In this document: positions 21,545 through 30,542 of the stretch, in pieces
How the letters are laid out: the number at the start of each line of letters is the position of its first letter
Numbering within the stretch: position 1 is the first letter of the stretch
NCBI GenBank assembly: GCA_963789955.1
Contig: CAWBMV010000015.1
Location: forward strand, 252,900 to 316,899
DNA: 64,000 nt
Direction of reading: 5' to 3'
DNA from: an uncultured Candidatus Rokubacteria bacterium
Lineage (GTDB): Bacteria; Methylomirabilota; Methylomirabilia; Rokubacteriales; CSP1-6
Program-made: the position numbers and the translations under genes
The notes under the pieces: generated by a model
Seen by the model: the letters and a program-made list of their open reading frames with translations, nothing else
Database searches by the model: none
What the model was told of the DNA's origin: nothing

Positions 21545-23494
21545 TCAGGCGGTGGCGGCGGGGAGCTCGACGATGAAGGCGGCGCCGCCTTCCGGGCGGT
21601 TGACGGCCTTCAGCGATCCCTGGTGCTGCTCGACGATGGAATAGGAGACCCAGAGGCCGAGCCCCGTGCCCTCGCCGGGCGCCTTCGTCGTGGTGAAGGC
21701 CTCGAAGATGCGTGGCAGCACGTTGGGATGGATGCCGGGGCCGGAGTCGAGCACTTCCAGGCGAACGTTCGGCCCGCCGGGCTCGGACAGCCGCACGATG
21801 ATCTCGCGCTCGCCCTTGTGGTTGGCCATCGCCTGGTGCGCGTTCTGGACGAGATTGAGGAGCACCTGCTGGATCTGACCCTCGTCGGCCAGGACCGGCC
21901 GAACGTCCCCGAAGTCGGTGACGACCTTCACGCTGTCTCGCCGGAACTGGTGGGCTTTGAGCTCGACCACCCACTGGATCTGATCCTCGAGACGGCAGGG
22001 ATGCCGCTCGGCGGAGTGCCCGCTGGTGAACCGCAACAGGTTCTGGAGCATCTGCGCCGCGCGCGACGTCTCCTGCACGATCGTGTGCAACCGCTCGCGG
22101 CTCTTCGCGGGACCGTCCGAGCCCATGAGCAGGAGCTCCGCCTGCCCGAGGATCGCGGTCAGGCGATTGCGCGTCTCGTGCGCGAGACCGGCCGCGAGCT
22201 TGCCCACGGTCGAGAGCTTGTCGCCCTCGATGAGCTGAGCCTCGGCCGACTTGAGATCGTCGAGCTGGCGCCGTGTCGCCGAGTAGAGCTGCGCGTTCTG
22301 CAGGGCGAGACCGATCTGGTTGGCGCACGCCTCGACGAGCGCGATCTCGGATTCGGTGAACGCCTCGGGCGTGCGGCGGCCGAGCGAGAGCGCGCCGAGG
22401 ATCCGTCCCCGGCTGTGGATCGGCACGCACACGAAGGCGTGGATCCCTTCCTGGGTGACGGCCGCCCGCGCCGCCGGGAGCAGATCGACGGACTCGCTGA
22501 CGTGCGCCCAGTGCAAGGTCTTGCCGGTGGCGGCCACGCCGCCGATGAGCCCTTGCCCGGTCGGGAGCACGCGATTGATCTCGCGCAGCCGCGGCCGCAG
22601 GCCCCGGTCGCCGCGCAGGTGCAGGGTCGTGCCGTCCGCCGACAGCAGGTGCAGGCTCGAGATCTCGTGGCCGGTGACGTGCGTGAGCGCGTCGAGCGCG
22701 ATGCGCAGGACCTCGTCGACGTCCAGGGTGGCGCTGATCGCCTCGCCGATGCGGTGCAGGATGCGCACGTGCGACTCGACGTCGACGGTCGGCGCGCCGA
22801 CCGATCGTCGGACGAACTCGCCGAGCTCCTGGAGTCGCTCGTCGCTGTGGTCCTTGAAGGCGAACGCGTAGCCCTCGTCGTCGGCGCGCACGAGGATCGA
22901 CGGAACCTCGAGCTGCGTGTCGCTCTCGGGCAAGGTGATCGAGAGCGTCGCGACGCCGCCGGAGCGGCGCGCGCCGTTCGCGCGCACCTTGATGCCGGAG
23001 GCGCTGAGGTTGACCGAGGTGGATTCCCACACGTCGCCGCTCTGCTCGCGGATCTGGACCGGCAGCGAGAGCATGGCCCGCGGCGCCCGCCGCCGCTCGG
23101 AGTCGACCTCGTCGACCTTCGGCTTGCGCGGCGCTTTCGCCGGTGTCTCGAAGCACGCCAGGGCCTCTTGCAGGCGACGGAGCGCGACGGGCTTGCCGAT
23201 GAAATCGAAGGCACCCGCCCGCATGGCCTCCTGCGCCTGGCTTTCGGTCGCGCGTCCAGAGATGACGAGGATCGGGACGCGCAGGTCGCGGACCGTCTCG
23301 AGCTTCATGAAGTCGAGCCCGCTCATGCCGGGCAGGCACACGTCGAGGAGAACCGCATCCGGGCGTTCAGCGCTGAGTGTGTCGAGCGCCGTTTCGGCCG
23401 TGTGGGCGATGACGGGCTCGTGGCCGATCTCGTGGAGGAACTCCCCGAAGACCTCGCAGACCGCCTGATCGTCGTCGATGACCAATACGCGCAT
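21545..23494 (-). CDS. Hybrid histidine kinase REC-PilZ-GAF-HisKA-HATPase
   Basis: VIDDD/LLDV.LPG/KP receiver; RRAPR and NLSASG PilZ motifs; GAF; AHETRN, NLVQNA, DSGPG, GTGLGL. Confidence 0.88.
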   Translation of the reverse strand: MRVLVIDDDQAVCEVFGEFLHEIGHEPVIAHTAETALDTLSAERPDAVLLDVCLPGMSGLDFMKLETVRDLRVPILVISGRATESQAQEAMRAGAFDFIGKPVALRRLQEALACFETPAKAPRKPKVDEVDSERRRAPRAMLSLPVQIREQSGDVWESTSVNLSASGIKVRANGARRSGGVATLSITLPESDTQLEVPSILVRADDEGYAFAFKDHSDERLQELGEFVRRSVGAPTVDVESHVRILHRIGEAISATLDVDEVLRIALDALTHVTGHEISSLHLLSADGTTLHLRGDRGLRPRLREINRVLPTGQGLIGGVAATGKTLHWAHVSESVDLLPAARAAVTQEGIHAFVCVPIHSRGRILGALSLGRRTPEAFTESEIALVEACANQIGLALQNAQLYSATRRQLDDLKSAEAQLIEGDKLSTVGKLAAGLAHETRNRLTAILGQAELLLMGSDGPAKSRERLHTIVQETSRAAQMLQNLLRFTSGHSAERHPCRLEDQIQWVVELKAHQFRRDSVKVVTDFGDVRPVLADEGQIQQVLLNLVQNAHQAMANHKGEREIIVRLSEPGGPNVRLEVLDSGPGIHPNVLPRIFEAFTTTKAPGEGTGLGLWVSYSIVEQHQGSLKAVNRPEGGAAFIVELPAATA

Positions 23495-23526
23495 AGGGTT
23501 CGCCGTGAACGGCTACCCCTTCTTCC

Positions 23527-23542
23527 AGCAATCGGCGTACCA
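23527..23542 (-). promoter_or_regulatory. sigma54 -24/-12 promoter
   Basis: TGGTACGCCGATTGCT, GG-N10-GC spacing, 32 nt upstream of the kinase ATG. Confidence 0.65.
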
Positions 23543-23673
23543 CTGGTAAGAGATTGGTAAGTGGCTATTAAATATGCTGATTCCAGAAATTCCAACGCGC
23601 TAAACGTGGATGATCCGGGCTCAGCGCTGGGAGATTCCTGGCCGTTCGGAGCGGATCAGGGCGACGAGCCAGA

Positions 23674-24462
23674 TCAGAACGCGGTCGGACGAAGCCCCAT
23701 CGGGAGCGCGATCTTGTAGTACGAGCCGAGGAATCCTTCCCACCACGCCTGCCGCTCGCCGCCGCGAGCCACCTCGGAGAAGAGGCGCAGGCTGTCGTCC
23801 TGCCACTGCTGGATCGTCTCGAGATTGCCCGGGTCGTCCTCGATCAGCGCCTTCACCAGGGCGCGGCCGTAGCTGATGTGGCGGGTCTCGTCGCGAATGC
23901 GCGCTCGATGGTTCACCGCCGACAGGACGTCGCCGCGCGCCTCGGCGCCGTCCGCCAGGACCGTGAACGTGCCCGGCCCCGCGGCGCCCTCGGCGACGAA
24001 GTTGCCCTTCACGAGGATCTCGATGGAGTCCTCGAGCTCGAGCAGGTGGCGGAAGAAACGGCAGGTCGTTCCCGGCGACTCCCACGCGGCGAGCCAGTCG
24101 CGCTCGGGGATGCCGGCCCGCTCGAACACCTCGCGATCCATCTCCAGATGGCGCTGCTCGTCGGCCAGCTGGAACAGCGCCGACTTCTTCAGCTCGTCGA
24201 ACGGGGCGTTGGCGGCGGCGGTCGCGACGTAGTGTGTCGCGGACAGCTCGGAATAGTAGTTGTTGGCGAACTGGTCGACGGCGTTCTCGAGATAGCGCGG
24301 GCTGACGTTCTTGTAGTTCAGGGTGTCGTCGGGGATGCTCGCACGCTCGGCGAGATACCGCTCGCGCTCGCGAGCCTGCATGCTGACGTAGCGCTCCCAG
24401 CTGAGATTCGCCGGGTCGCTGAACAACGCCGTGTTCTTGAGGACGAGCCGCTTGCGCGCCAT
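23674..24462 (-). CDS. Ferritin-like di-iron protein resembling a truncated soluble di-iron monooxygenase alpha subunit (262 aa)
   Basis: SD GAGGAGG plus ATG 24462; E72, DEQRH, E158, DETRH ligand set. Confidence 0.8.
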   Translation of the reverse strand: MARKRLVLKNTALFSDPANLSWERYVSMQARERERYLAERASIPDDTLNYKNVSPRYLENAVDQFANNYYSELSATHYVATAAANAPFDELKKSALFQLADEQRHLEMDREVFERAGIPERDWLAAWESPGTTCRFFRHLLELEDSIEILVKGNFVAEGAAGPGTFTVLADGAEARGDVLSAVNHRARIRDETRHISYGRALVKALIEDDPGNLETIQQWQDDSLRLFSEVARGGERQAWWEGFLGSYYKIALPMGLRPTAF

Positions 24463-24481
24463 CGCGCCTCCTCTATATGCG

Positions 24482-25530
24482 TTATGGCGCCCGGGCCCGC
24501 GCTCCATCGAGTAGGGCTGCCAGCGCACGAGCGTGCTCCGCTCGAGGACCGACGGATTCACGCAGCTCCGCGGCCAGCGGCCGCCGAGCACGAGCGCGAT
24601 CTCCTGACCGACCCGACGCTTGCGCACGGGATCGAACCTCGCGGACGCGGAGGCCACGTGCGGCGTCAGGATGACGTTGTCCATCTTCAGGAGCGGATTG
24701 TTGTTGTCGGGCGGCTCCTGCTCGAGCACGTCGAGGCCGGCCGCGGCGATCCAGCCTTCCTTCAGCGCCTTGATGAGCGCCGGCTCGTCGGTCGTCGGGC
24801 CGCGCCCGGTGCTGATGAAGAGCGCCTCTGGCTTCATGAGCCGGAAGTGGTGCTCCGTCATCAGATGGTGGGCGTCGGCGGTCGCCGGCGCGTGCATCGA
24901 GACGATGTCCGAGCGCTGCAGCAGCTCGGTGAGGTTCACGGGCTCGACGCCGTACTGACTGACGACCAGCTCCTCGACGTACGGATCGTACGCGAGGATG
25001 TGGAACCCGAAGGCGCGCGCCCGCACCGCGACCGCGCGAGCCACGTGGCCGAAGGCGATGAGACCGAGGGTCTGGCCCATCAGGCGCGGGAACTGGGACA
25101 GGATCGGCCGGCCCTCCGCCCAGCGTCCGTCGCGGACCATCCGGTCCATCGTCGTGAGGCGGCGATACGTGGCCAGGATCAGCATCATGGCGTGGTCGGC
25201 GACTTCCTCGATGAACGTGTCGGGCACATTGGTGACCGGGATGCCGCGGGCCGTCGCCGCGTCGACGTCGACCGAGTCGACGCCCACGCTGCCGAGTGAG
25301 ATCACCTTGCACCGCTCGAGCCCGTCGATCATGCGCTTGGTGATACGGCGTCCCTTCGCGTAGAGGGCGTCCGCGTCACGCGCTTCCTTGACGAACTCCT
25401 CGTCGGTCTTGGCCGCGATCTCGACGATCTCGGCGTCGATCGGCGCGAGGGCCTCCATCTCGAGCTTGTAGCCCGCGCCGGGCACCGCATAGCTTGCACC
25501 GCTCGGGGTGACCACCTTGAACTTCGCCAC
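24482..25530 (-). CDS. D-isomer 2-hydroxyacid dehydrogenase (CtBP/SerA-like)
   Basis: VGVDSVD, VTNVPD, EVADHA, SMHAP, TGRG, GLDVLEQEP, LTPHVA; reads through into next gene, nearest TAA (24482) is out of frame. Confidence 0.9.
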
Positions 25531-25784
25531 GCTCGTCTCCTCCTCAGTCGTCTTCGGTCTCGGCTTCTGGTCGGCCCGACCGGCCGTCCTGCGCTCGCGC
25601 ATTGTCGCACAGGCCGCAGCCGCGCGGTGGCCGCCAATCCCTGGCGTCCCGGGCCCGATCATCGCACATTCCCGCGCGCCGGGCGCGCGCACTGCGCGGC
25701 TTGCGTGGTTTCCGACTCTTGCCCTAGTATTTCGCCCATACTGTGCGGTACCAGACTGACGGGGCCCGAACCCTCCGGAGGACC

Positions 25785-26993
25785 ATGCTCATGATCAAAC
25801 GCATCATCGCGATCGCCGCCGTCGCGCTCGCCCTCGGCATCAGCTCGGCGCAGGCGCAGGAAGTGAAGGTCGGCGTCGCCCTGCCGTACACGGGGATCGG
25901 CGCCGAGTTCGCCCAGCTGGTCGACCGTGGGATGGAGCTCTACCTCAAGCTCAACGCCGACAAGGTGAAGCCGTACAAGATCACCATGATCCGGCGCGAC
26001 GTGAAGGATCCGAGCGGCGCCAACGCGAAGATCGCGGTGCAGGAGCTCCTGACCCAGGACAACGTCGACGTCCTGGCCGGCTGGATCTACTCGCCGAACG
26101 CGATCGCGTCCGCGCCGATCGTCAGCGCGGGCAAGAAGCTCGCGGTGATCATGAACGCCGGCACCGCGCACATCACCAACCTGTCGCCGTACTACGTCCG
26201 CACCTCGTTCAGCATGTGGCACGCCGGCTATGCGCTCGGCGAAGCGTCGGCGAAGATCCTCAACGCCAAGACGGCGGTCGTCGGCTACACCGATTTTCCG
26301 CCCGGCAAGGACAGCCTCGCCGCGTTCAAGCGGAGCTTCGAGGCCAACGGCGGCAAGGTGATCGACGAGATTCCGATGGGCGGCGCCGGCGCGGTGCCTG
26401 ACTTCACGCCGTTCTTCCAGCGCGCCAAGGACAAGAAGCCGGACCTGTTCTTCGTCTTCGTCCCGGCCGGCGACCACGCGGCCGCGGTGGTGAAGACCTA
26501 CGCGGCGCTCGGCATGCGGGAGGCCGGTATCAGGCTGATCGGCCCCGGCGACATCACCCAGGACACGAAGCTCCAGGCGATGGGCTCGGCCGCGGTCGGC
26601 CTGATCACGATGCACCACTACCACGCCGATCTCGACAACCCCGAGAACAAGCGCTTCGTGGAGGCGTGGAAGAAGGAGTATGGCGCCAGCACCACGCCCG
26701 ACTTCATGGCGGTGGGCGGCTACGACGGCATGGCGGCGATCGTGCACGTCACCCAGGCGCTGAAGGGCAAGATCGAGGTCGACGCCGCGCTCGAAGCCCT
26801 CAAAGGGTGGAGGTTCGCGAGCCCGCGCGGCCCGATCATGATCGATCCCGTCACGCGCGACATCGTCATGAACGAGTACCTGTCCGAGGCGGTGATGAAG
26901 GATGGCCGCGTCTACCAGAAGGTGATCGGCAAGATCGACGGGGTCAAGGACGCCTGCAAGGAGCAGAAGATCGGTCCGTGCGCGCCGAAGTGA
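25785..26993 (+). CDS. ABC substrate-binding protein (LivK/Peripla_BP_6 type, aromatic-acid-binding-like)
   Basis: Signal peptide, LPYTG, SPNA, MNAGT, PDFTPF.QR, SPRGP..IDP.TRDIV. Confidence 0.9.
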   Translation: MLMIKRIIAIAAVALALGISSAQAQEVKVGVALPYTGIGAEFAQLVDRGMELYLKLNADKVKPYKITMIRRDVKDPSGANAKIAVQELLTQDNVDVLAGWIYSPNAIASAPIVSAGKKLAVIMNAGTAHITNLSPYYVRTSFSMWHAGYALGEASAKILNAKTAVVGYTDFPPGKDSLAAFKRSFEANGGKVIDEIPMGGAGAVPDFTPFFQRAKDKKPDLFFVFVPAGDHAAAVVKTYAALGMREAGIRLIGPGDITQDTKLQAMGSAAVGLITMHHYHADLDNPENKRFVEAWKKEYGASTTPDFMAVGGYDGMAAIVHVTQALKGKIEVDAALEALKGWRFASPRGPIMIDPVTRDIVMNEYLSEAVMKDGRVYQKVIGKIDGVKDACKEQKIGPCAPK

Positions 26994-26995
26994 GG

Positions 26996-27184
26996 TGCGC
27001 GCTGCAGGCCGTCGCGGGGCTGGGGCCCCGCCGGCCGAGGCGCGCCTATAAATCCGGATGCGCGCTGCAGGCCGTCGCGGGGCTGGGGCCCCAGCGGCCG
27101 AGGCGCGCCTATAAATCCGGATGCGCGCTGCAGGCCGTCGCGGGGCTGGGGCCCTGCCGGCCGAGGCGCGCCTATAAATCCAGG
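26996..27184 (+). repeat. Three tandem 63-bp palindromic intergenic repeats
   Basis: Units start at 26996, 27059, 27122: TGCGCGCTGCAGGCCGTCGCGGGGCTGGGGCCC-NNC-CGGCCGAGGCGCGCCTATAAATCC (unit 2 has CAG at the variable site). Confidence 0.95.
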
Positions 27185-27206: not shown

Positions 27207-28083
27207 GTGATCTTCGGGGATCGACGTCGCCAGCATGGTCCTCGGCGGCGTGGCCGCCGGCATGGTGCTGTTCATCGTGTCGGTCGGGCTGTCGGTGACG
27301 ATGGGCTTGATGGGCTTCGTCAATCTGGCCCACGGCGGCTTCGCGATGCTCGGGGGGTACGTGATCGCGCACGCGATGAAGCACTGGGGCCTGGGCTTCG
27401 CGCCGGCGCTCGTGATCGGATTCGTCGTCATCGCCGCCCTGAGTGCTGTGCTGGAGCGGCTGCTCTACTCGCGGCTCTACCGGGCGACCGAGCTCGATCA
27501 GGTGCTCTTCACGATCGGCCTCGTCTTCGTGATGATCGCGTCGGTCACCGTGCTCGTCGGGCCCGAGAACCAGCCATTGATGCTGCCGGCGTTTCTTCGC
27601 GGCCAGATCAATCTCGGGATCACGCAGTACCGCACCTACAGCGTCTTTCTCATCGTGGTCGGGATCCTGATCGTGAGCGGGCTCTGGCTCGTGTTCGAGC
27701 GGACCCGGATGGGCGCCCAGATCCGCGCCGCCGTCGACAACCGGCGCATGGCCGAGTCGCTCGGCATCAATATCCGGCGCCTGTTCACCTTGACCTTCGC
27801 CTTCGGCGGCGGCATGGCGGCGCTCGGCGGCGGGCTCGGCGCCGAATTTCTGGGCCTCGATCCCCAGTACGCGCTGAAGTACCTCGTCTACTTCCTGATC
27901 GTCGTCGCCGTCGGCGGCCTCGGCCGGGTCACCGGCGTCTTCTACGCCGCGCTGCTGATCGGCGTGCTCGACTTCGCGCTCAAGAAGTATGTGCCGTCGG
28001 GCGGCACGGCGTTCATCTACGCGCTCACGATCCTCCTCTTGCTCTGGCGGCCGCAGGGCCTCTTCGGCACCAAGAGCACGTGA
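27207..28083 (+). CDS. LivH-like permease (likely GTG 27207 with an extra G in GGGG; intact frame from 27235)
   Basis: GLSVTMGLMGFVNLAHG, RAAVDN..MA..LGIN, VVAVGGLG. Confidence 0.9.
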
Positions 28084-29096
28084 CGCGGTCGGCGGTCAGC
28101 TGGGTCGATCATCCGGCGGCGGTCGCGCTGGCCGGCCGCCACCGTCTGCGCGCGTGGGAGCCGATTCCCTGGCTCCTGGCCCTCGCGTTCTACTTCGTGT
28201 TCCCGAAGTATCTCGGGTTCGGCACCGAGCTCCTGATCACGATCCTCTTCGCGCTCTCGCTCGATCTCGTCCTGGGCTACGCGGGGATCGTCACCCTCGG
28301 TCAGGCGGCCTTTTTCGGCGCCGGCGCCTACACGGTCGGCATGCTGGCGAAGCGCGGAATCTGGAACGAGCCGATCACGGGCCTGATCCTCGCGGCGGCG
28401 GTCGCGGCGATCGTGGGTCTCGGATCGGGGCTCGTGCTCCTGCGCACCGGAGGGCTGACCCTGCTCATGCTCACGTTGTGCACGATGGCGCTCCTCGAGG
28501 AGGCCGCCAATCTCGCGCACGACTACACCGGCGGCTTCGACGGTCTCGACAGCCTGCAGATCACGCCGGTGCTCGGCATGTTCGAGTTCAATCCGCTCTA
28601 TCCAAAGACCCAGTACCTCTACGCCCTCTCGGTGCTCTTCGTCTGCTTCGTGTTCGTGCGGACGCTCGTCTACTCGCCATTCGGCCAGAGCTTGACGGGA
28701 ATTCGTGAGAACAGCCTGCGCATGCACGCGGTCGGCGCGCCCGTTCGCCGGCGCCTCGTTCTCTGTTACGCGCTTTCGGCGGCCATCGCCGGCGTGGCCG
28801 GCGGCGTCTGGGCGCAGGCCAACGCCTACGTGAACCTCGGCACCCTGGGCCTCGACCGCGCGGCCACCGTGCTGATCATTCTGGTCCTCGGCGGCTACGG
28901 CCGGCTGTACGGAGCGTTCGTCGGCGCGGTCGCTTACGTGGCTCTGTCGCACTTTCTCTCGAAGATCTATCCCACGGCGTGGCAGCTCGGACTCGGGCTC
29001 CTGCTCGTCGTCATCGCCCTGTTCGCGCGCAACGGGATCCTGGGAATCATCGAGGCCGCGGCCCGTCGACTGCGGCCGCCGCGCGCGACATCGTGA
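28080..29096 (+). CDS. LivM-like permease
   Basis: LDLVLGYAGIVTLGQAAFFG.GAY, TGGFDG, SPFG..L.GIREN. Confidence 0.9.
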   Translation: MTRSAVSWVDHPAAVALAGRHRLRAWEPIPWLLALAFYFVFPKYLGFGTELLITILFALSLDLVLGYAGIVTLGQAAFFGAGAYTVGMLAKRGIWNEPITGLILAAAVAAIVGLGSGLVLLRTGGLTLLMLTLCTMALLEEAANLAHDYTGGFDGLDSLQITPVLGMFEFNPLYPKTQYLYALSVLFVCFVFVRTLVYSPFGQSLTGIRENSLRMHAVGAPVRRRLVLCYALSAAIAGVAGGVWAQANAYVNLGTLGLDRAATVLIILVLGGYGRLYGAFVGAVAYVALSHFLSKIYPTAWQLGLGLLLVVIALFARNGILGIIEAAARRLRPPRATS

Positions 29097-29848
29097 CCAC
29101 GCCGCTTCTCGAGACGCGCGCGCTGTGCCGGAACTTCGGCGCGCTGGCCGCCGCGCGTGACATCGACTTCCGGCTCGAGGCCGGCGCCCGGCACGCGCTG
29201 ATCGGCCCGAACGGCGCCGGCAAGACCACGTTCGTCAACCTGCTCACCGGCGTCATCCCGCCCACGTCGGGGGCGATCTTGATGAAGGGGCGCGACATCA
29301 CGGGGGTCGATCAGGCGCAGCGGGTCAAGCTCGGCATCGCCCGGACCTTTCAGATCAACCGCCTGTTCCGCCGGCTCTCCGTTCTGGAAAACGTCTATAT
29401 CGCGGTGGCCGAGCGCGTCGGCGCCGCGCCGTCGATGTTCCAGCCGGCCGGCACGCGCCGCGACGTGGTCGAAGAGTCGATGCAGCTGCTCGAAACGCTC
29501 AAGCTCACCGCCGACGCGAGCCGCCGGATCTCCGAGCTTCCCTACGGCCGGCAGCGGCTGGTCGAGCTGGCCATCGCGCTCGGCTTGACGCCCGAGATCC
29601 TGCTGCTCGACGAGCCGGCGGCCGGCGTGCCCAGCGCCGAGAGCCACATCATCCTCGACGCGATCGACGGGTTGCCGCGGGACATCGGGGTCCTCATCAT
29701 CGACCACGATATGGATCTCGTGTTCCGGTTCGCCCAGCGCATCACCGTGCTGGTGAGCGGCGCCGTCTTCGCGACGGGGACGCCGCGCGAGATCGGCGCC
29801 GACGCGAACGTCCGGGCGGTCTATCTCGGTCAGGCCAGCCATGGCTGA
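29093..29848 (+). CDS. LivG-like ATPase
   Basis: GPNGAGKTT, ARTFQ, LPYG.QR, LLDEPAAG. Confidence 0.92.
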   Translation: MTTPLLETRALCRNFGALAAARDIDFRLEAGARHALIGPNGAGKTTFVNLLTGVIPPTSGAILMKGRDITGVDQAQRVKLGIARTFQINRLFRRLSVLENVYIAVAERVGAAPSMFQPAGTRRDVVEESMQLLETLKLTADASRRISELPYGRQRLVELAIALGLTPEILLLDEPAAGVPSAESHIILDAIDGLPRDIGVLIIDHDMDLVFRFAQRITVLVSGAVFATGTPREIGADANVRAVYLGQASHG

Positions 29849-30542
29849 GGCGCTGGTCCTGCGTCACGTCTCGGCGGGCTACGGCGAGACGGTCGTGCTC
29901 GAGGACATCAACCTGACGCTGGCACGAGGCGAGAGTCTCAGCGTGATCGGACGCAACGGCGTCGGCAAGACGACCTTGCTGGCGACGGTGATGGGCCACA
30001 CGACCCTGCATCAGGGCGAGGTGTTGCTCGGCGGCGCGCGCCTCGATCGCCTCCCGACCTTTCGCCGCGCCCGGGGTGGCATCGGCTGGGTTCCGCAAGA
30101 GCGCGAGATCTTCCCGTCGCTCACCGTGCGCGAGAACCTGACGATCGGCGCCCGGCCGGGGCACTGGACCCAGGAGCGGGTGTTCGATCTGTTCCCGAAC
30201 CTGGGCGCACGGCTCTCGAACATGGGAAACCAGCTTTCGGGCGGCGAGCAGCAGATGCTCTCGATCGCGCGCGCGCTTCTGACGAATCCATCGGTACTGC
30301 TCATGGACGAGCCGACGGAAGGGCTGGCGCCGGTGATCGTCGAAGCGCTCGCGACGGTGCTGTTACGGCTGCGCGGCGAGGGCGCGCTCTCGATCGTGCT
30401 CGTCGAGCAGAACAGCCGGGTCGCCCTCGCCTTCTCCTCGCGGACCGTCGTCATGGACAAGGGGCGTATCGTCTACGACGGCGAATCGGCCGCGCTCAGC
30501 ACCGACTCAGAACGACTCGCAGCGCTCATCGGCGTCACGTAG
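29841..30542 (+). CDS. LivF-like ATPase
   Basis: GRNGVGKTT, LSGGEQQM, MDEPTEGLAP. Confidence 0.92.
   Translation: MAEALVLRHVSAGYGETVVLEDINLTLARGESLSVIGRNGVGKTTLLATVMGHTTLHQGEVLLGGARLDRLPTFRRARGGIGWVPQEREIFPSLTVRENLTIGARPGHWTQERVFDLFPNLGARLSNMGNQLSGGEQQMLSIARALLTNPSVLLMDEPTEGLAPVIVEALATVLLRLRGEGALSIVLVEQNSRVALAFSSRTVVMDKGRIVYDGESAALSTDSERLAALIGVT

Follow-up and report, generated by a model that had tools for sequence, protein, structure and literature searches.

The window, that is, the whole stretch of 64,000 nucleotides that was analyzed, carries at 23674..24462 on the minus strand a gene for a minimal diiron protein (P0002) resembling the hydroxylases of soluble diiron monooxygenases (SDIMO). 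The open reading frame runs from 24462 to 23674 and encodes 262 aa followed by a stop. As the initial annotation had described, it has its own Shine-Dalgarno sequence and carries the ligands E72, E102, H105, E158, E192 and H195 as well as a Gly-Pro at positions 162-163. The pairs D101-E102, D191-E192 and G162-P163 are present beside the six ligands, and D109 and R188 are family-invariant. The Shine-Dalgarno-like octamer AGAGGAGG (24467..24474, minus strand), as read from the sequence, lies 4 nt 5' of the ATG. The GC3 of the gene is 0.92, and its dN/dS is 0.07-0.18 in seven pairs with relatives.

Immediately upstream, in the same orientation, lies a gene of the D-2-hydroxyacid dehydrogenase family (24482..25530, minus strand; PF02826/PF00389), which is 348 aa long in relatives. 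Two extra bases in the assembly, at 24487 and 24490, shift the frame so that the dehydrogenase stop (24482-24484) is not read, and the gene, having no in-frame stop, runs into the diiron ORF as a 672-aa frame. This read-through was found in 1 of the 74 loci holding both genes, the source window alone, and the extra bases are missing from the contigs of close strains in all three covering runs. Most probably, then, the read-through is either peculiar to the strain or an error of the assembly. Contigs of two RNA runs cover the diiron gene partly and one joins it to the dehydrogenase, although contigs cannot show transcription. Downstream, a hybrid sensor kinase (21545..23494, minus strand; receiver-PilZ-GAF-HisKA-HATPase), whose receiver-PilZ-GAF-kinase domain order is unusual, is a conserved neighbor only in the clade of the window. 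On the plus strand, a divergent gene encodes an ABC solute-binding protein (25743..26993; PF13458), followed by ABC permease and ATPase genes (27235..30542, plus strand) assigned by means of the ORF list and comparison with an ortholog, the first permease (27235-28083, plus strand) matching PF02653. Between them, at 26996-27181, a GC-rich palindromic element is present in three tandem 63-nt copies that are 95% alike. It has about 93 matches of at least 30 nt in the genome and looks like a REP-type repeat of the genus; some relatives have it between their dehydrogenase and diiron genes and others do not. No match to a sigma-70 promoter or a terminator was found within 23400-25900.

A protein search returned 334 clusters at E ≤ 0.001, 120 of them listed. 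Among the 162 family proteins aligned, 145 are 261-264 aa long and all are within 240-303 aa; each of the six diiron ligands is retained in 160-162 of them and R188 is Arg in 161. Within the taxonomic family of the source organism (order Rokubacteriales), 37 of the 159 genomes have the gene, including 17/17 of the source genus, while a sample of 201 genomes of the phylum gave 29 strong matches, all in the source family and with one gene per genome (one of them split). Hosts of the close relatives are labelled Rokubacteria or Methylomirabilota. The diiron gene is thus a real, conserved Rokubacteriales gene family and not a fragment. One family member (L029:5278-5937, on G147:C29) aligns as two separate parts, the roughly 40 residues that should connect them being absent, and is either a broken copy or an assembly fault. 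The label 'phenol hydroxylase P3', given to some copies by automatic annotation, is misleading.

Beyond the close relatives, a search of 1.8 billion representatives found seven more-distant short proteins of 259-326 aa with 25-39% identity. Members of two of these clusters are labelled Eremiobacteraeota and Actinomycetota. In one cluster, of 19 members, 14 of the 15 listed are 282 aa long and the other is 296 aa. Scans of genomes and of metagenomes for distant short relatives (one each) returned close relatives alone, and plasmid searches gave full-length alpha subunits only, among the matches listed.

The homology to SDIMO alpha subunits proposed in the initial annotation, for a stand-alone protein of about half the length, is supported by domain matches, profiles and fold. 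PF02332 scores 54.3 bits on the protein against a cut-off of 24.4, and it was the only one of the families compared to pass: the AurF family (PF11583) gives 18.1 bits against a cut-off of 29.6, MiaE-like is likewise below its cut-off, and the R2lox model NF006200 reaches 19.6 bits against 194. At E 0.01, PF02332 matches 16/16 family members and the AurF Pfam 4/16. The profile of the family matches the phenol hydroxylase alpha (2e-26), ToMO alpha (6e-19) and ToMO beta (6e-13), and more weakly R2lox (9e-11), MmoX (2e-7) and a VlmB homolog (7e-4). In comparisons with the AlphaFold model (pLDDT 93.9), the top four structural matches are SDIMO chains with Z of 23.2-25.9, and the Foldseek list consists of SDIMO chains throughout. 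The phenol hydroxylase beta (Z 25.9, rmsd 2.4, 255 aligned), ToMO beta (25.9) and MmoY (23.3) come first, with MmoX at Z 23.2 (rmsd 2.9, 255 aligned) and T4MO alpha at 20.8. The best non-SDIMO fold is the VlmB homolog (Z 21.4, rmsd 2.9, 241 aligned), followed by R2lox (19.9, rmsd 3.0, 234 aligned), PaaA (16.0) and AurF (13.9). R2lox, AurF or PaaA, any of which the initial annotation had named as a possible better structural match, are therefore surpassed by SDIMO alpha and beta chains. By these matches and the predicted model, the protein belongs with the SDIMO hydroxylases before R2lox, VlmB, PaaA and AurF.

The protein shares with SDIMO alphas (PhN/DmpN, TouA, TmoA and MmoX), its best sequence matches, the six ligands at the same spacing (E, DExxH, E, DExxH within the PF02332 domain), the GD and GLRP motifs and the DP..L...Y...Q N-terminal helix. 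The BMM hydroxylase fold is present in the predicted model. However, identity to the alphas is about 20%, and with about 262 aa against 470-550 aa, the short protein lacks the N-terminal arm and the C-terminal domain of about 190 residues that belong to a full-length alpha. It matches approximately residues 39-313 of the 501-aa T4MO alpha, plus nearly the whole beta core. With the SDIMO betas (PhL/DmpL, TouE, TmoE and MmoY) it has an equal fold extent, the top Z of 25.9 and a profile E of 4e-25, but canonical betas lost their iron ligands whereas the short protein retains all six and is the sole PF02332 gene of its genome. It is, in short, an alpha-like active site within a beta-sized chain.

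The other ferritin-like families resemble it less. R2lox has a Mn/Fe cofactor, a fatty-acid ligand and a Tyr-Val crosslink; both are stand-alone ferritin-like dimetal proteins of similar size, but the sequence match to R2lox is much weaker than that to SDIMO alphas. VlmB, a diiron oxygenase of azoxy biosynthesis (PMC11705231), and AurF/CmlI are single-gene diiron oxygenases and hence a precedent for the absence of beta and coupling subunits. The identity to them is 12-17% (12% to VlmB by structure), and the sequence is nearer to SDIMO alpha. Members of the VlmB family would be expected in azoxy clusters containing VlmO. PaaA is a ferritin-like diiron oxygenase too, but with a profile match probability of 12% from a thin profile; PF05138 (PaaA/PaaC) is not among the Pfam matches of the diiron protein at E 0.1, and it matches four other places of the source genome, where PaaA-like genes are separate. 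A different ferritin-like family of about 330-350 aa (L117:2817-3863, L114:2634-3620 and C17:145347-146567 of the source genome) matches the AurF Pfam, keeps its ligands intact and resembles the group-6 alphas in its helix-E motif, and no close solved relative of it was found.

The active site departs from that of the alphas in a consistent way. The conserved Thr-Asn of helix E and Gln/Glu of helix F, T201/N202/Q228 in T4MO numbering (TmoA), occur in 20, 20 and 21 of the 21 alphas, respectively, against 0/12 short proteins; the Gly-Pro noted earlier at the catalytic Thr-Asn position was thus borne out, with the whole triad replaced in all 12 members. The equivalent residues of sMMO are T213/N214/E240, which are described as being repositioned by the coupling protein, in a cavity gated by L110, F188 and T213 (PMC13045389). 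Conversely, position 188 (T4MO I227) is Arg in 12/12 short proteins and 0/21 alphas, and position 109 (T4MO Q141) is Asp in 12/12 against 4/21 alphas. In R2, Ile234 is described as lying in the O2 pocket with Phe208 and Phe212, and as aligned with an Ile/Val of MMOH (PMC5623701). Position 188 lies four residues before the fifth ligand, like Ile234 in R2. From the numbering of the R2 ligand E238, Ile234 presumably corresponds to position 188 of the diiron protein, and positions 68, 109 and 185 are taken by us, from SDIMO numbering, as pocket-lining. The invariant R188/D109 pair would therefore occupy pocket positions, and the pocket, with N68, D109, H185 and R188, appears from the alignment to be polar. 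Such polarity, together with the fixed Arg, points to an anionic or polar substrate.

An SDIMO hydroxylase is defined as alpha2beta2(gamma2) with a separate beta subunit in the 2025 SDIMO review (PMC11825192). No beta, gamma, coupling protein, Rieske or FNR-type reductase gene was found within the 64-kb window, in agreement with the absence of beta, gamma and coupling genes initially reported, and for these three the result extends to the source genome (87% complete). There PF02332 matches once, while a control plasmid yields both alpha and beta genes. The six-frame source genome was also searched with own profiles of betas (17 sequences), coupling proteins (12) and gamma subunits (6): the beta profile matches only the diiron ORF, and the gamma and coupling profiles match nothing. 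The coupling protein family PF02406 was found in 0/201 genomes of the phylum (control 2/2), in which just five other PF02332 matches occur, all weak, the two that were scanned scoring better to AurF and the other three having no identification by Pfam. Since the source genome is just 87% complete, it is the absence across genomes that carries the weight. The loss of the triad fits the loss of the coupling gene, and both together are coherent. Genes for a separate beta subunit and a coupling protein were not found in the genomes searched, and the protein has neither the length of a full alpha nor the triad of an SDIMO; it fails SDIMO membership on these four features, yet it most likely works like a stripped-down SDIMO.

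Two other explanations can be weighed against these data. One takes the gene as the remnant of an alpha gene in decay, or as the mere C-terminal domain of a dehydrogenase fusion, for which the 672-aa frame of the window would speak. Since the read-through is confined to one locus of 74 and lengths are uniform under purifying selection, this was refuted at the family level and is extremely improbable; a search for longer forms among 4425 candidates (460-2000 aa) gave none either, which is weak evidence, and the homologs are equally short, not the full-length subunits considered in the initial annotation as a refuting case. The other takes it as an ordinary SDIMO alpha whose partners are unlinked or too divergent for detection, and the incompleteness of the source genome leaves some room for them. 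The profile searches, the absence of PF02406 from the phylum sample and the scarcity of other PF02332 matches are contrary to this, as is the lack of both the triad, which is linked to the effector, and the C-terminal residues; it is largely refuted and very unlikely to be correct.

Phylogeny was studied on 55 sequences and 222 columns by maximum likelihood, with FastTree agreeing. The tree was built without methanotroph MmoX, group 7, R2lox and VlmB sequences and leaving out loci L158 and L159, and its SDIMO group labels are our own, assigned with the help of annotation and operon order. The short family forms one clade (99.9/100) outside the sampled alphas; the 21 alphas form one clade without it (97.5/98), and so do the 17 betas (96.9/99). 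The branching order of short, alpha and beta lineages is weak (83.5/68), with short plus alpha or a three-way split being favored. In the AU test (5000 replicates, fast searches), none of six constrained placements was rejected (p 0.086-0.53), and those tolerated include nesting beside group 1, group 2 and the divergent alphas. Consequently, the family may be a reduced alpha or may stem from a homodimer preceding the duplication, and the 'ancestral-like' character suggested in the initial annotation is not established. The protein being a homodimeric survivor from at or before alpha/beta specialization, oxygenating with ferredoxin and reductase alone, is unlikely though not far-fetched; if true, the family would supply the simple model that has been missing for the origin of alpha-beta hydroxylases and coupling proteins.

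The tree contains two further groups of interest. P0176 (327 aa) groups with the betas while retaining the six iron ligands, and from its sequence it is a candidate for a beta still binding iron. P0169, P0171, P0173, P0177, P0180 and P0184 are divergent full-length alphas with their own clade (89.3/90) outside the sampled groups 1-6 and with clusters that include Mycolicibacterium and a Bathyarchaeia-labelled record; they possibly represent an unclassified SDIMO group.

The quaternary structure was predicted with two copies and four irons. The pair score was 0.86 against 0.00 for the best control; the mark applied to it is reached by 20/30 solved homodimers and 1/23 single chains, and is roughly applicable here. 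Prediction runs had at least 97% of contacts in common with pLDDT of at least 92. The predicted interface comprises residues 21-33, 73-86 and 89-107, taking in the N-terminal DP..Y...Q helix that is common to alphas and some betas, and its conservation (0.89) is not above that elsewhere (0.88). The protein is thus predicted to be a homodimer, although the pass may be owed to likeness with solved alpha-beta or R2-type dimers.

Relatives of a second group, with 78-84% identity, have two redox genes next to the diiron gene: one for a 2Fe-2S/FAD/NAD reductase and one for a thioredoxin-like ferredoxin fused to a Rieske domain, the best solved match of this domain being the T4MO ferredoxin (2e-14). 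The diiron gene and this reductase are both present in 12/159 genomes, and within 6 kb of each other in 6 of those 12. These six loci belong to three genera, four of them in one genus, with divergent or convergent layout and the diiron gene on the strand opposite to the cassette in 6/6. A reductase of the SDIMO operon kind is adjoining but on the opposite strand in 6/37 genomes, and no match to it was found in 25/37, including all 17 of the source genus. In the family tree, linkage appears more than once, on several branches, with weak deep support.

The reductase occurs without the diiron gene in 40/52 genomes, and the overlap expected if both were independent (37 × 52/159, about 12) equals the 12 observed, so that the cassette is not dedicated to the diiron gene. 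Twenty cassette loci from genomes in which the cassette is not beside the diiron gene showed no family member and varied neighbors. A dedicated reductase cassette as a rule of the family was rejected on these grounds. The two-gene cassette (for example, L101:5173-5871 and L118:5109-6161), whose reductase is present in 52/159 family genomes, mostly without such an oxygenase beside it, possibly serves unlinked oxygenases in general as an electron shuttle.

In the source genus (g1), PF00175 (FNR-type NAD-binding domain) is found in 1/17 genomes against 11/14 control genomes, while a PF14759 reductase is present in 16/17. The source genome has 19 Rieske matches, one of its Rieske ferredoxins being followed directly by a PF14759 reductase (the pair at C1:429153-430684), and PF00268 (class I RNR beta) was not found in it. 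With no linked FNR-type reductase but with this pair available, electron supply in trans appears plausible in the source genus on gene content. Since redox partners adjoin the gene in six relatives, the protein is probably a hydroxylase dependent on ferredoxin and reductase and not a self-sufficient protein. Of the 'single-subunit oxygenase' proposed initially, the part on beta, gamma and coupling subunits stood, while the predicted homodimer and the adjoining redox partners speak against a single, self-sufficient chain.

Gene neighborhoods differ between the two clades. In that of the window, within the flank fetched, the dehydrogenase is present in the locus of 56/63 tips and the binding protein in 44/63, with no linked reductase (0/63). 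In five tips, a PtmU3-like amidohydrolase-fold gene is inserted upstream of the dehydrogenase (L037:2371-3537; also L004 and L007), with PtmU3, a diiron hydroxylase, as its best solved match. Neighbors in the second clade are zinc dehydrogenases, a family-5 ABC system and luciferase-like genes. Amidase, dihydropyrimidinase-like and cyclase genes also occur at the loci, and no biosynthetic cluster was found around those examined. In both clades, the genes point to uptake and breakdown of small organics. The closest solved relatives of the binding protein of the window are 4EY3/4EYG/4EYK (E 6e-86), which are listed with p-hydroxybenzoate and vanillate (PMC10443332, supplement table). A hydroxybenzoate-type acid imported by the adjoining ABC transporter is our tentative best guess for the substrate, a doubtful one because it comes from one transporter and one Arg. 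The initial idea of substrates imported by the divergent transporter gains from the likeness to hydroxybenzoate binders but, since the neighbors differ, the link is valid for one clade only.

Taken together, the evidence argues for a homodimeric, effector-independent diiron oxygenase acting on a polar or anionic substrate, perhaps hydroxybenzoate, a model-based reading to which we assign a probability of about 0.6; iron binding, electron donors, O2 activation and substrate are inferred. In the proposed mechanism, the gene would encode a BMM hydroxylase pared down to its diiron four-helix core and the helices beside it, with neither the N-terminal arm nor the C-terminal domain, and two copies would most likely associate via residues 21-33, 73-86 and 89-107, replacing the alpha-beta pair. 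The diiron site would be reduced by a ferredoxin, in some relatives by way of the adjoining reductase and thioredoxin-like/Rieske fusion, and in the source genus by way of an unlinked Rieske ferredoxin and glutathione-reductase-type reductase. O2 would then bind to the reduced site and one oxygen atom would go into a small substrate, with a coupling protein playing no part.

Two other functions were considered for the same fold. The protein might not be an oxygenase but a diiron or Mn/Fe protein for R2lox-like oxidation, reduction of O2, peroxide or NO, or iron handling, in which the buried Arg-Asp pair would be structural, closing the pocket. The loss of the conserved Thr could mean the loss of SDIMO-type O2 chemistry, and the whole Thr/Asn/Gln triad is gone; the missing dedicated reductase in 25/37 genomes, the core-gene-like presence in all genomes of the genus and the nearness of the R2lox fold (Z 19.9; 9e-11) agree with such a role. 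Against this, NF006200 falls far below its cut-off, uptake and catabolic genes are neighbors in both clades and the reductase/Rieske cassette is linked on several branches, even if deep support is weak, so that a non-oxygenase is unlikely. Alternatively, a single-component N-oxygenase or oxidase like AurF, CmlI or VlmB, acting on an aminobenzoate or an N-heterocycle, would perform oxidation of an amine, arylamine or hydrazine, or desaturation, rather than C-H hydroxylation. The VlmB homolog as the best non-SDIMO fold, VlmB-like clusters near a distant member in Atlas (0.92), the amidase, dihydropyrimidinase-like and cyclase neighbors, and an Arg suited to a carboxylate-bearing substrate are in line with it. 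The extra His ligand of AurF would lie four residues before the last Glu, where the diiron protein has R188. This difference, if the AurF position is so placed, the AurF Pfam scoring below its cut-off and in only a quarter of the members, the AurF Z of just 13.9 and the absence of a biosynthetic cluster from the examined loci make N-oxygenation, like the other oxidations named, rather unlikely. The effector-independent homodimeric oxygenase is the preferred reading.

As regards earlier work, the seven groups of the 2025 SDIMO review are all multicomponent, and only matches covering more than 80% of a reference alpha were retained there (PMC11825192); a half-size family would drop out of such a filter. 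The terms 'Rokubacteria', 'Methylomirabil', 'truncated' and 'orphan' do not occur in the main text of that review (PMC11825192). A study of 60 Rokubacteriales genomes reports no methane monooxygenase genes and discusses copper enzymes (PMC8780371). No description of the half-size family was found in the literature that could be searched, which excludes subscription papers such as earlier reviews of SDIMO evolution. Hence, this is a real, conserved and apparently undescribed half-size lineage of the SDIMO-hydroxylase fold, but it is not a new category, since other ferritin-like families already include diiron oxygenases encoded by a single gene.

A natural 30-kDa version without beta, gamma, coupling protein and triad would allow a direct test of the purpose of those parts, and the short family offers a small scaffold for diiron oxidation chemistry. 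It also bears on the origin of alpha and beta subunits from a homodimer. For the organisms themselves, it adds a likely oxidative step to the abundant uncultured Rokubacteria of soil.
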